Source of the DNA: Lytechinus pictus
Lineage: Eukaryota
Direction: 5' to 3'
DNA length: 64,000 bases
NCBI RefSeq assembly: GCF_037042905.1
Contig: NC_087247.1
Coordinates: 63,123,097-63,187,096, forward strand
Shown: piece after piece, positions 15,588-30,167 of the stretch
Numbering within the stretch: the stretch's first letter is position 1
Layout of the letters: each line of letters starts with the position of its first letter
Position numbers and translations under genes: made by a program
Notes under the pieces: generated by a model
Databases searched by the model: none
What the model was told of the DNA's origin: nothing
Seen by the model: only the letters and a program-made list of their open reading frames with translations

Positions 15588-17556
15588 CAGGGCCGTAGCC
15601 AGAAGCATTTTGTTGGGGGGGTGTACCAGCTAAATTTGCCAACTAAATTTGGCGTGATCGCACCAACGTGAGCACAGGGGGAGTCTGATGGGGGATGTGC
15701 CCCCCCCTACAATAATCACATGCCAAAAGATTTTGAATTTTTAGAATTAAATTAGTGGCATTTTGGTGAATACTTTAAGGTAAATTATACAAAGATATAC
15801 AAAGATATTTGCACTGTAAAAATAAACATTTTGGATCAAAATAGAAAGGCTAGTGTGCCGTAGTTGCTAACTTGCAGTATAATTATATACCCTATGCATT
15901 AATAATATCAAAATCAAAGATTTTTTTATTTTTAATTGACCTTCTGTGCAAGACACTCAACTAAAATTTCAAGAGTGCTACTGCTAACAGTGGCATACCG
16001 TGGGTCGCGGCATTGGGGGGGCAGCAAAAATTTTGAGTCATTAAGTGGGCGCGCGAAGCGCGCTCAATTGCCAGGTATACTGACCTAATAGAGACACTAT
16101 AAGGACTATGCAATTAAACGGATATGTATCTTAGTGATCAAATAATGCGAGCGCGAAGCGCGAGCTGAAAATGTTTGATATTCAGTCCTAAAAAGGGACA
16201 TTATAAGCAAAGTTTTGTAATCATGATATGTACCTGTCTCACAAAACAAACAATGCGAGCGCGAAGCGCGAGCGGAATTTTTTTGTATAACTTGACCCAA
16301 AAAAGGGACATTTTAAGGACTATCTTTTGGAATTCATGAAGTGCGTACGTATCTCATCATAGTCATCTAATGCGAGCGCCAAGCGCTTGCTGATTTTGTT
16401 ATAATTACAACCATGACAACTAAGCACATGAAGCACTTTTTGTGGTAATCATGAACATGATACGTATTTCACTAATGAAATATTGCGGCCCAGAAGCGCG
16501 AGTTGACAATTTTTGAAATTTAGACCTGAAGAGGGGCATTCTATGGCTTGTTTGTAGGAATTTACTAGTTTCACTAATCAAGTGATGCGAGCGCGAAGCG
16601 CGAGCTGAAAATTTGTTATAATTAGATCAGAAAAAGGGACATTTTAAGGACTGTCTTTAGGAATTTGTGCACTGCAAAAAAAAACGCCGGTGTTGATTTA
16701 ACACCAGCCCGGTACCTATATCGGTCCACACCAATGCAAACGTAAACACAGACTGGAAATGTTTTATATTAAGGCCTTAAAAGGGGGGCAGTCACTTCAA
16801 GTATATATTCATGAAAAAACATATATCACTACACAAAACAATAATAACTTGTGTTTTTTGCCAACTGCAAACTTGTAGACAAGTCTACAAGTTGTACACT
16901 TGTCTTCATGAATTTGCCAACTGCAGAGTTCTGTTCTTTTCAGTTCTGAAACGGGGCAGTACTTGTACATCACTTTGTCTTGCCTCTAATTTTACAAAAC
17001 TAATGTGTTTGTTAAATCGTCAATAATTGTGGTATAATTTGCAAACTCACAAGCTTGTTTATATTAGGGGAGGACCGGGGGCTTACTTTGTGCGTTATTA
17101 TAGCTCCATCTGTTTTGTCCTTTGTATTTTGCTGACTAGTAGGTCTCTAAGCCTGGCTACATGCATGGACTTGGATTTGCCAACTGGTTGTCTTTACTCC
17201 ATAAGTCGTAACCTTCTTCGAAGTTGATACCTCTATTTTTCTTTCCTTTTTTTTTCTTTCTTTCTTTCTTTCTTTCTTTCTTTCTTTCTTTCTTTCTTTC
17301 TTTCTTTCTTTCTTTCTTTCTTTCTTTCTTTCTTTCTTTCTTTCTTTCTTTCTTTCTTTCTTTCTTTCTTTCTTTCTTTCTTTCTTTCTTTCTTTCTTTC
17401 TTTCTTTCTCTCTCCCCTTCTCTCCTTTCTTTTTTTTCTTCCTTTCTTTTTCTCCCCTATCCTCCATTTTGCCAACTGGTACATGATTTTGCCGACTGCC
17501 ATGAATGTTGGGGGGGTGTCACACCCCCCCATACCCCCCCTCTAGCTACGGCCCTG
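15588..17556 (+). mobile_element. hAT-like non-autonomous element, copy 1 (1969 bp), carrying the satellite S and a (CTTT)n tract
   Basis: TIR CAGGGCCGTAGCCAGA at 15588 pairs with ..TCTAGCTACGGCCCTG at 17541-17556. The 8-bp TSD CTACTACT lies at 15580-15587 and 17557-17564, within a (TAC)n microsatellite. The interior holds GCGAGCGCGAAGCGCGAGC units at 16020-16640 and (CTTT)~40 at 17236-17410. Confidence 0.8.
17236..17410 (+). repeat. (CTTT)n microsatellite
   Basis: About 40 tandem CTTT units. It is the source of the artefactual FFLSFFLS and KERKKERK ORFs. Confidence 0.95.
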
Positions 17557-18100
17557 CTACTACTAATACTACTACTTCATCTTCTTCTTCTTTGTATCCT
17601 CCCCAACCGCGACCATGTCAAGTCGTTGGCTTGTAACGAGGATATGGCATGGGGAGGGATGTGCCCCCTAATATCCACAAAATATCATTACTTTGATAGC
17701 ACAGTCACTTGTTTTGTATACCTGCGAGTTGAGTAGCTTTAGGGCTGTATTAAACAATTTCCAGTTCCAAGATGACTGTATTCGAGGCATATTTTTATAT
17801 TGTGAATTGTGTATAACATATTACTGTTATTTTGATATAGTGTACATTTTCTCGTATTTTTAAAGAACAGGAAACATGATAAAGATTAAATATATAGATT
17901 AGATAGAAGACTGTGTATTGAATGGATATTTCACTTAACCCATCTATCCACACATTGCGCTATCTCTCTCTCTCTAAATGTCATGATCTTTCTACGAATC
18001 GTTTTTTATGCATGTCTGTCCGTCTATCTTTTTATAATGTGTTAACTTTCTTTCTGTCTTCATTATATCTTCCATCCCTTTCATTTATCTCTTCATATAG

Positions 18101-18182
18101 GTTCAATATGAACGAAACAGATGGTGAAATTGATCAATTCGATGAAAGCCAATGCGAATTAGTAAAATATGTAATTTTACAA
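18101..18182 (+). CDS. PARP4: PARP4-like exon A (first recognised exon; the N-terminal BRCT exons were not found in the window)
   Basis: AG acceptor at 18099-18100, donor CAA|GTGAGT. Translation ..NETDGEIDQFDESQCELVKYVILQ resembles human PARP4 ..VEIPHLPQDFEVAKYNTLEK, compared from memory. Its phase-0 end matches the next exon. Confidence 0.55.
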
Positions 18183-27780: not shown

Positions 27781-28140
27781 GTTAGTGATGAAACAAAGTC
27801 CCATGATATCAAAGAAAATAACACTAATAGTATTTACTTATTTACGTATTTTCAAAAGTGTACATATACATTATTAAAGATACTGTGCATGATATATGAA
27901 AAGAGAGAGATAGTGAGAGAAGCAGAGGGAGGCATTTAATAAGTTTCATTTTCTTTTTATTTGACTGGTGTTTTCAAAATAATTATCTCGATTTATCTGT
28001 TCTCGTTCTTCCATAGTCGGAATAAAAACACCATGGACATGGTGTTGCCTTGCAAATTTGCAAGATAAAAGCTTACGTGCTTGAGAAAGGGCTTGAAAGA
28101 TAAGTTTCAACAAAGATTAGGAATTTCATAACCTTTAAGG

Positions 28141-30104
28141 CAGGGCCGTAGCTAGAGGGGGGGGGGGGGGTATGGGGGGGGTGTGACACCCCCCCAACAT
28201 TCATGGCAGTCGGCAAAATCATGTACCAGTTGGCAAAATGGAGGATAGGGGAGAAAAAGAAAGGAAGAAAAAAAAGAAAGGAGAGAAGGGGAGAGAGAAA
28301 GAAAGAAAGAAAGAAAGAAAGAAAGAAAGAAAGAAAGAAAGAAAGAAAGAAAGAAAGAAAGAAAGAAAGAAAGAAAGAAAGAAAGAAAGAAAGAAAGAAA
28401 GAAAGAAAGAAAGAAAGAAAGAAAGAAAGAAAGAAAAAAAAAAGGAAAGAAAAATAGAGGTATCAACTTCGAAGAAGGTTACGACTTATGGAGTAAAGAC
28501 AACCAGTTGGCAAATCCAAGTCCATGCATGTAGCCAGGCTTAGAGACCTACTAGTCAGCAAAATACAAAGGACAAAACAGATGGAGCTATAATAACGCAC
28601 AAAGTAAGCCCCCGGTCCTCCCCTAATATAAACAAGCTTGTGAGTTTGCAAATTATACCACAATTATTGACGATTTAACAAACACATTAGTTTTGTAAAA
28701 TTAGAGGCAAGACAAAGTGATGTACAAGTACTGCCCCGTTTCAGAACTGAAAAGAACAGAACTCTGCAGTTGGCAAATTCATGAAGACAAGTGTACAACT
28801 TGTAGACTTGTCTACAAGTTTGCAGTTGGCAAAAAACACAAGTTATTATTGTTTTGTGTAGTGATATATGTTTTTTCATGAATATATACTTGAAGTGACT
28901 GCCCCCCTTTTAAGGCCTTAATATAAAACATTTCCAGTCTGTGTTTACGTTTGCATTGGTGTGGACCGATATAGGTACCGGGCTGGTGTTAAATCAACAC
29001 CGGCGTTTTTTTTTGCAGTGCACAAATTCCTAAAGACAGTCCTTAAAATGTCCCTTTTTCTGATCTAATTATAACAAATTTTCAGCTCGCGCTTCGCGCT
29101 CGCATCACTTGATTAGTGAAACTAGTAAATTCCTACAAACAAGCCATAGAATGCCCCTCTTCAGGTCTAAATTTCAAAAATTGTCAACTCGCGCTTCTGG
29201 GCCGCAATATTTCATTAGTGAAATACGTATCATGTTCATGATTACCACAAAAAGTGCTTCATGTGCTTAGTTGTCATGGTTGTAATTATAACAAAATCAG
29301 CAAGCGCTTGGCGCTCGCATTAGATGACTATGATGAGATACGTACGCACTTCATGAATTCCAAAAGATAGTCCTTAAAATGTCCCTTTTTTGGGTCAAGT
29401 TATACAAAAAAATTCCGCTCGCGCTTCGCGCTCGCATTGTTTGTTTTGTGAGACAGGTACATATCATGATTACAAAACTTTGCTTATAATGTCCCTTTTT
29501 AGGACTGAATATCAAACATTTTCAGCTCGCGCTTCGCGCTCGCATTATTTGATCACTAAGATACATATCCGTTTAATTGCATAGTCCTTATAGTGTCTCT
29601 ATTAGGTCAGTATACCTGGCAATTGAGCGCGCTTCGCGCGCCCACTTAATGACTCAAAATTTTTGCTGCCCCCCCAATGCCGCGACCCACGGTATGCCAC
29701 TGTTAGCAGTAGCACTCTTGAAATTTTAGTTGAGTGTCTTGCACAGAAGGTCAATTAAAAATAAAAAAGTCTTTGATTTTGATATTATTAATGCATAGGG
29801 TATATAATTATACTGCAAGTTAGCAACTACGGCACACTAGCCTTTCTATTTTGATCCAAAATGTTTATTTTTACAGTGCAAATATCTTTGTATATCTTTG
29901 TATAATTTACCTTAAAGTATTCACCAAAATGCCACTAATTTAATTCTAAAAATTCAAAATCTTTTGGCATGTGATTATTGTAGGGGGGGGGGCACATCCC
30001 CCATCAGACTCCCCCTGTGCTCACGTTGGTGCGATCACGCCAAATTTAGTTGGCAAATTTAGCTGGTACACCCCCCCAACAAAATGCTTCTGGCTACGGC
30101 CCTG
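28141..30104 (-). mobile_element. hAT-like non-autonomous element, copy 2 (1964 bp), inverted relative to copy 1
   Basis: The reverse complement of 15588-17556 is nearly identical. The embedded ORF translations are identical: 17027-17227 matches 28463-28663, 16811-17026 matches 28664-28879, and 16106-16300 matches 29390-29584. It has its own 8-bp TSD CTTTAAGG at 28133-28140 and 30105-30112. Confidence 0.8.
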
Positions 30105-30167
30105 CTTTAAGGTTTGTATTATATTAAATGATTCTAAGCTTGAACTGTGATTACTTTTGTTCTAAAG

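Follow-up and report, generated by a model that had tools for sequence, protein, structure and literature searches.

Two near-identical, inverted non-autonomous transposons, probably of the hAT type, at the PARP4 locus of Lytechinus pictus

Results

The PARP4 locus and its inverted repeats

The DNA analyzed here, a stretch of 64,000 nucleotides from Lytechinus pictus (assembly GCF_037042905.1, contig NC_087247.1, positions 63,123,097 to 63,187,096, hereafter the window), contains a PARP4 gene on the + strand and two nearly identical copies of a non-autonomous transposon that face each other in opposite orientation, 10.6 kb apart. An earlier note on this DNA had described the pair as hAT-type elements that inserted independently and bracket a series of PARP4 exons. 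The best database homologues of the gene are PARP4 proteins with PARP, VIT_2 and VIT domains, and the best matches, to birds and oyster, are 42-58% identical. Pfam analysis of the concatenated exons returned PARP (5e-24), VIT (7e-31) and VWA_3 (2e-12), while PARP_reg (5e-5) stayed below its cut-off. The PARP, VIT and VWA domains follow each other in order on one strand, as in PARP4 (vault PARP). The exons for the PARP regulatory-like part, the PARP catalytic domain and the first part of the VIT domain lie between the two copies according to tblastn and Pfam, just as had been proposed, although nine exons are seen by homology in this interval and not the twelve (A to L) counted before. The order and orientation of the exons are colinear across both copies and there is therefore no inversion in this assembly. 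All features are compiled in Table 1.

Copy 2 resides in the intron 27781-30167, inside the VIT domain, and fills 83% of it. Together with the duplicated target site, the element accounts for 1972 of about 2387 nt, so that the original intron must have been only about 415 nt long. The copy ends 63 nt before the acceptor AG; the splice sites are untouched, and the branch point and polypyrimidine tract have probably been left intact. The earlier statement that both copies sit inside one gene thus holds for copy 2, which is intronic, but is unproven for copy 1, upstream of which neither an exon nor a Pfam domain was recognized. A tblastn search with database homologues, and with a human PARP4 sequence as a lead only, found no PARP4 exon before 20510, and Pfam analysis of the + strand open reading frames of 1-15590 and 17557-20520 found no domain; the BRCT or N-terminal exon was not detected there. 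The first recognizable exon, at 20510, aligns with human PARP4 near residue 249, the human sequence again serving as a lead only. Since no + strand PARP4 exon or Pfam domain is detected upstream of it, copy 1 may lie either in a 5' intron or upstream of PARP4.

Three further observations concern the host gene. An open frame at 18100-18215 (+), NETDGEIDQFDESQCELVKYVILQ, ends at a GT donor-like site and may be an upstream PARP4 exon; it yielded neither significant homology nor a Pfam match. An older pair of inverted repeats of about 390 nt and about 86% identity, separated by 1 kb (22400-22800 and 23700-24100), sits in the PARP4 intron between the exons at 21920 and 24305, i.e., within the interval bracketed by the copies. 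Further downstream, at 39760-41835 (+), a GC-richer stretch holds an open frame of 691 codons that includes two blocks of 33-bp tandem repeats (11 residues, SPVMLEARRAP-like). The frame probably represents a large, repetitive exon from the C-terminal portion of PARP4.

Table 1 Features at the PARP4 locus and related elements in the window (window positions).
Feature	Positions	Strand	Remarks
Copy 1, non-autonomous transposon	15588-17556	+	1969 bp; homology with copy 2 starts and stops here
Copy 2, non-autonomous transposon	28141-30104	-	1964 bp; inverted relative to copy 1
Left terminal inverted repeat, copy 1	15588-15603	+	CAGGGCCGTAGCCAGA
Right terminal inverted repeat, copy 1	17541-17556	-	CAGGGCCGTAGCTAGA read on - strand; 15/16 positions match left repeat
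Right-end terminal inverted repeat, copy 2	28141-28156	+	CAGGGCCGTAGCTAGA
Left-end terminal inverted repeat, copy 2	30089-30104	-	CAGGGCCGTAGCCAGA
Target-site duplication, copy 1 left	15580-15587	.	CTACTACT; inside (CTA)n microsatellite
Target-site duplication, copy 1 right	17557-17564	.	CTACTACT
Target-site duplication, copy 2	28133-28140	.	CTTTAAGG; unique sequence context
Target-site duplication, copy 2	30105-30112	.	CTTTAAGG
Array of six ~108-bp core repeats, copy 1	16020-16690	+	each with GC-rich palindrome GCGC-GAA-GCGC within TGCGAGCGCGAAGCGCGAGC
Core-repeat array, copy 2	29000-29670	-	identical to copy 1 over array
(CTTT)n microsatellite, copy 1	17238-17449	+	~53 units (Tandem Repeats Finder)
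(CTTT)n microsatellite, copy 2	28256-28452	-	~49 units; 15 nt shorter than copy 1
Subterminal motif TTTGCCRACTG, copy 1	16857, 16913, 17176, 17468, 17488 (16857-17498)	+	TTTGCCAACTG; five direct copies
Subterminal palindrome	17509-17531	+	TGGGGGGGTGT-C-ACACCCCCCCA; 25 nt from right end
PARP4 exons before copy 2 (tblastn)	20510-20647, 20954-21139, 21765-21920, 24305-24457, 24830-24925, 25669-25857, 26325-26396, 26837-27028, 27556-27780	+	
VIT-domain exon directly upstream of copy 2	27556-27780	+	donor GT at about 27781
VIT-domain exon directly downstream of copy 2	30168-30317	+	acceptor AG 30166-30167
PARP4 exons after copy 2 (tblastn)	30168-30317, 31408-31473, 31786-31938, 32144-32344, 32813-33145, 33557-33658, 34474-34665, 35787-35966	+	
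Non-coding 2.2-kb element	8462-10693	- relative to copy 1	terminal repeats CATGGGCGGAAATC; 8-bp duplication CTAGTAGG
MITE (miniature inverted-repeat transposable element) of 294 bp, PARP4 intron	35232-35525		terminal repeats CAGTGGCGTACC / TAGTGGCGTAAC; 8-bp duplication ACTAGGTG
1.27-kb element	42384-43652		ends CAGGCGCTGATCC / CAGGGGTGGATCC; core repeats; flank only 5-bp ACTAG, not 8 bp
Solitary end	55864		CAGGGGCGGATCCATAC

Identity and boundaries of the two copies

The near-identity of the copies withstood the nucleotide alignment that had been called for. MAFFT aligned them with 1950 matches, four mismatch columns and 25 gap columns, i.e., 1950 of 1954 aligned bases are equal. The sole clean substitution is a T/C difference at element position 334; the remaining three mismatches and all gaps fall within homopolymer runs or the (CTTT)n tract. 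Differences in length comprise 15 nt of CTTT, two additional C residues near 15699 and, toward the right end of copy 2, a longer run of C. The copies had been said to differ mainly in the number of CTTT units; in fact, the lengths of the C-runs vary equally. Identity is uniform over the full element, with no patchwork of converted and unconverted tracts. A repeat search resolved the inverted arms into 1556 nt at 100% complementarity and 296 nt at 97%, with nothing past the ends of the elements, and blastn placed the limits of homology exactly at 15588/17556 and 30104/28141.

It is exactly at these limits that the terminal inverted repeats are found. They are 16 nt long, conform to CAGGGCCGTAGC[C/T]AGA and start with CAGGG. 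The corresponding 16-nt pattern CAGGGCCGTAGCYAGA matches the 64-kb window four times, only at the four ends of the two copies, where 0.06 matches are expected. On inspection, the 8 bp flanking each copy proved identical on both sides, with CTACTACT around copy 1 and CTTTAAGG around copy 2. The latter duplication lies in unique sequence and is strong evidence; by chance, all eight bases would agree at a given position in about 1 of 65,000 cases. Alignment, blastn and reading of the flanks thereby bear out the coordinates, orientation, terminal repeats and flanks given in the earlier note.

Internal architecture and coding capacity

From left to right, the element consists of a terminal repeat, about 430 bp of unique sequence, six core repeats of about 108 bp, a spacer of about 550 bp, a (CTTT)~50 tract, a palindrome and the second terminal repeat. 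The palindromes of the core repeats, each a GCGC-GAA-GCGC mini-hairpin, start in copy 1 at 16046, 16146, 16254, 16371, 16484 and 16586 and are spaced 100-117 nt apart. In copy 2, the microsatellite reads AAAG on the + strand and hence also in the PARP4 pre-mRNA. The motif TTTGCCRACTG occurs six times per copy in one orientation when a variant at 15635, near the left end of copy 1, is included; all 12 occurrences in the window are inside the copies, compared with 1.84 expected. On the analogy of other cut-and-paste transposons, these motifs are candidate transposase-binding sites. The palindrome at the right end (G7TGT/ACAC7) forms a 10-bp stem of modest stability (-12.7 kcal/mol, z = -2.0), and neither the left end nor a core repeat folded better as a single strand than shuffled sequences.

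In six frames of the element, Pfam found zero families at E<=1, and Rfam found no family match over 15-31 kb; a coding capacity of the element and a structured RNA were dropped after these empty scans. The identical translations of open reading frames that had been put forward as evidence are a mere reflection of identical DNA in an element that does not code for protein. A nested insertion may be indicated by an internal CAGTGGCATACC at 15991, but the alignment to the MITE at 35232 was ambiguous.

Related elements in the window and beyond

According to blastn, the core repeat recurs in the window at 8750-10470 and 42968-43273 and partially at 35250-35338. The elements at these places are non-coding and of one kind with the copies. 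The first of the regions belongs to the element at 8462-10693, in which the ~108-bp core repeat with its palindrome is present in about ten degenerate units. At 10655, 38 nt within the boundary of this element, another end, CAGGGGCGGATCCAGC, is present and may mean nesting. The 5' part of the MITE at 35232-35525 is 88% identical over 90 nt to an internal portion of the 1.97-kb element at about 16044-16150. Clean 8-bp duplications flank four elements of the window, both copies counted. Most duplications of the element group contain CTAG or CTAC, which may mean a target preference. A terminal motif, CA(G/T)(G/T)G(G/C)CG(G/T)A followed by G-runs, is common to these four elements.

In a metagenome scan, the 29-nt terminus found 0 exact matches. 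The 21-nt core palindrome found 32, mostly chance matches in GC-rich bacterial contigs. The exceptions are low-GC JAAUYG01... contigs (L006, L009, L010, L015, L030, L031), which break inside elements that start with CAGGGGCGTAACTGGGG, with L031 starting CAGTGGCGGTCCCAGG. About 30 nt past the start, these contigs carry an identical palindrome, ATGCGAGCGCGAAGCGCGAGC, and a G-run/C-run palindrome, and show about 70% similarity to 15725-15780. Given the related ends and the palindrome in these contigs, the element type is not confined to this genome. It is conceivable, though of little probability, that the ~108-bp core repeat is a module swapped among several families with 8-bp duplications; this would be a counterpart on the hAT side of the 'cassette' described for pearl and DTC84.

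The remainder of the window holds other repeats. A reverse-transcriptase open reading frame of the long interspersed nuclear element (LINE) type at 51089-53359 (+), whose homologues carry RVT_1 and zf-RVT, reaches 88% identity with a metagenome contig of TARA Oceans (L001), a hint of a marine invertebrate source. At 13.8-14.8 kb, pieces of an endonuclease and of a PHD-like finger resemble a further LINE. Satellite-like tandem arrays at 49289-50471 and 59351-59822, with periods of 163/309/472 bp and 157 bp, are rich in AAGGTCA/TGACCT motifs.

Discussion

Origin of the pair

In our view, and with a probability of roughly 85%, the copies inserted very recently and independently of each other, both as members of a single class II (cut-and-paste) transposon family that is non-autonomous. 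As the homology ends exactly at the terminal repeats and the 8-bp flanks differ between the copies, the pair arose by separate insertions and not by segmental duplication, a point on which we agree with the earlier note. A transposase with its gene at another place in the genome, most probably one of the hAT superfamily, would have mobilized the element in trans; it would recognize the terminal repeats and perhaps also the TTTGCCRACTG motifs, six in number. Given the single substitution over about 1950 bp, it is plausible that one copy is the direct parent of the other via short-range 'local' transposition, a behavior typical of hAT elements. Insertion of copy 2 widened the VIT-domain intron of about 415 nt to about 2.39 kb and spared its splice sites.

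The superfamily calls for a more cautious statement. Hallmarks of hAT elements are an 8-bp target-site duplication and a short terminal repeat of about 10-25 nt starting with YARNG. The copies have repeats of 16 nt that match at 15 of 16 positions and start with CAGGG, 8-bp duplications in unique sequence (CTTTAAGG) and in a microsatellite (CTACTACT), and no capacity to encode a transposase, as judged from the six-frame Pfam analysis. The term 'hAT-type' used previously fits the duplication and the terminal repeat, but the superfamily as such is only inferred, since P elements make 8-bp duplications as well. Membership of hAT is the best inference and probably correct, yet not demonstrated.

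Several points weigh against this reading of the locus. The duplication of copy 1 is weak evidence on its own because it falls in a (CTA)n microsatellite, where chance matches are frequent. The target consensus nTnnnnAn is only half matched: CTACTACT, CTTTAAGG and CTAGTAGG agree with it in the second-position T alone, ACTAGGTG in neither of the two bases, and four sites are too small a number for a verdict. Neither in the element nor in those parts of the window that were scanned did Pfam reveal an autonomous partner or a fragment of a hAT transposase, and an exact look-up of open reading frames of the element, of PARP4 and of the LINE matched nothing in the protein collection, where this genome is not represented. 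The window shows two copies of the family only. The near-identity is also explicable by gene conversion between older copies or by assembly polishing. Finally, P elements and their MITEs likewise give perfect 8-bp duplications (PMC1562414).

The P superfamily, or another superfamily with 8-bp duplications, is the best of the alternatives, albeit an unlikely one. The element would in this case have been moved by a THAP-domain P transposase. The terminal repeats of the copies start, however, with CAGGG, and starts of the CAG(T/G)GG form are typical of hAT elements (Charlie/MER1-type); moreover, the window contains neither a THAP nor a P transposase. A P-like touch is seen in the related element at 8462-10693, the terminal repeats of which start with CATGGGCGG and resemble P in the first four bases. 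Those of the copies, on the other hand, are 16 nt long and begin with CAGG and not with the CATG of P elements, while the repeats of Anopheles P elements measure 27-31 nt (PMC1562414).

We consider it more improbable still that the insertions are old and have been held identical by gene conversion. The uniform identity along the whole element would be in line with such a process, and intrachromosomal conversion is known to act on inverted repeats at a distance such as this one of 10.6 kb. Recency is nevertheless the simpler explanation: differences in the (CTTT)n and homopolymer tracts are slight, and the alignment shows no alternation between tracts that were converted and tracts that were not. 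An inverted segmental duplication, or an artefact by which a single real copy was placed twice in the assembly, is very improbable. Almost 100% identity with differences confined to homopolymer and microsatellite lengths is admittedly also the pattern left by long-read errors, but the copies share no flank beyond 15588/17556 and 28141/30104, each has its own 8-bp duplication, and copy 2 is flanked by consecutive PARP4 exons in the correct order. We give just as little credence to a Helentron-derived non-autonomous element (pearl/DTC84/DINE-1 type), which the modular plan of flank, tandem palindrome core repeats, microsatellite and flank would suit (PMC3879986), given that four elements of the window have true terminal inverted repeats and 8-bp direct repeats, while DTC84 and pearl have conserved AA termini and no 8-bp duplication (PMC3879986).

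Possible consequences and meaning

Both copies occupy noncoding sequence at the PARP4 locus. No evidence was found for a function of the copy pair, and the recognizable PARP4 exons are intact and colinear. Inversion by recombination and formation of a hairpin in the pre-mRNA, as raised in the earlier note, are possible for any 2-kb inverted pair, the hairpin under the condition that copy 1 is co-transcribed. Should copy 1 reside in a 5' intron of PARP4, two perfectly complementary arms of 1.95 kb could pair in the pre-mRNA and loop out the regulatory, catalytic and first VIT exons, a scenario to which we attach little probability. If it applied, circular RNAs or skipped isoforms without the catalytic domain, long double-stranded RNA for editing or small-RNA production, and a polymorphic 10.6-kb inversion disrupting PARP4 would be conceivable outcomes.

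Two recent insertions, as we favor them, would mean that a family of non-autonomous DNA transposons was active very recently in this genome and that its autonomous partner is therefore probably still present. The 2-kb inverted pair, together with long microsatellites and homopolymers, makes the PARP4 locus error-prone for assemblies and gene models. The shared core-repeat module adds another case to the known spread of tandem repeats within mobile elements. All in all, the copies are an ordinary feature of a repeat-rich animal genome and carry little weight beyond annotation.

Comparison with known systems

Inverted pairs of repeats in introns, such as inverted Alu elements, promote back-splicing or RNA editing. 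As there, long, perfectly complementary repeats bracket a series of internal exons at the PARP4 locus; the parallel presupposes that copy 1 is transcribed along with the gene and describes a possible consequence only.

In architecture, the copies resemble DTC84 of Donax trunculus and pearl of oysters. In these, core repeats with a palindrome form an array in the center, at most about five or six in number; one end of the array is joined to a microsatellite, flanks bearing short inverted repeats enclose the whole, and the core repeats act as a module shared between 'cassettes' (PMC3879986). The likeness is architectural only; there is no sequence similarity, and the mechanism of transposition is presumably different.

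With non-autonomous hAT elements, exemplified by Ds of maize, the human MER1/Charlie-derived MITEs and Mar of Drosophila willistoni (PMC3517528), the copies share the 8-bp duplication, short repeats of the CAG.G type, repeated short subterminal motifs, the lack of coding capacity and, plausibly, a tendency to insert near the donor. They differ from a typical MITE in their much greater length of 1.97 kb, the satellite-like tandem array and the long microsatellite, and no related transposase was identified.

A literature search for the exact terminal repeat gave no match, and shorter strings led to the Pegasus-like MITEs of the silkworm. In BmMITE-13 to -16, the target duplication is 8 bp long and the terminal repeats read CAAGGGCGGATCCAG, CAGTGGCGGATTA and CAGTGGCGTACCTA (PMC2997013). 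Like Pegasus of Anopheles gambiae, they combine an 8-bp duplication of any sequence with repeats of the CAG(T/G)GGCG(G/T)A type, a combination to which the elements described here come close. The miniature size does not extend to the copies, which measure 1964 and 1969 bp compared with 263-431 bp for BmMITE-13 to -16 and 260-540 bp given for Pegasus-like MITEs, and the host is a different animal. The closest correspondence is found in the neighboring elements: the ends CAGTGGCGTACC and CAGGGGCGGATCCAGC closely match published Pegasus-like repeats, and that of the MITE at 35232-35525, CAGTGGCGTACC, equals CAGTGGCGTACCTA of BmMITE-15 over the first 12 bases (PMC2997013). The CAGGGCCGTAGC of the copies is similar but not identical to the CAGTGGCG / CAAGGGCGGATCCAG type and differs from CAGTGGCG at 2 of the first 8 positions. 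That a type of terminal repeat is conserved as far as insects is of mild interest.

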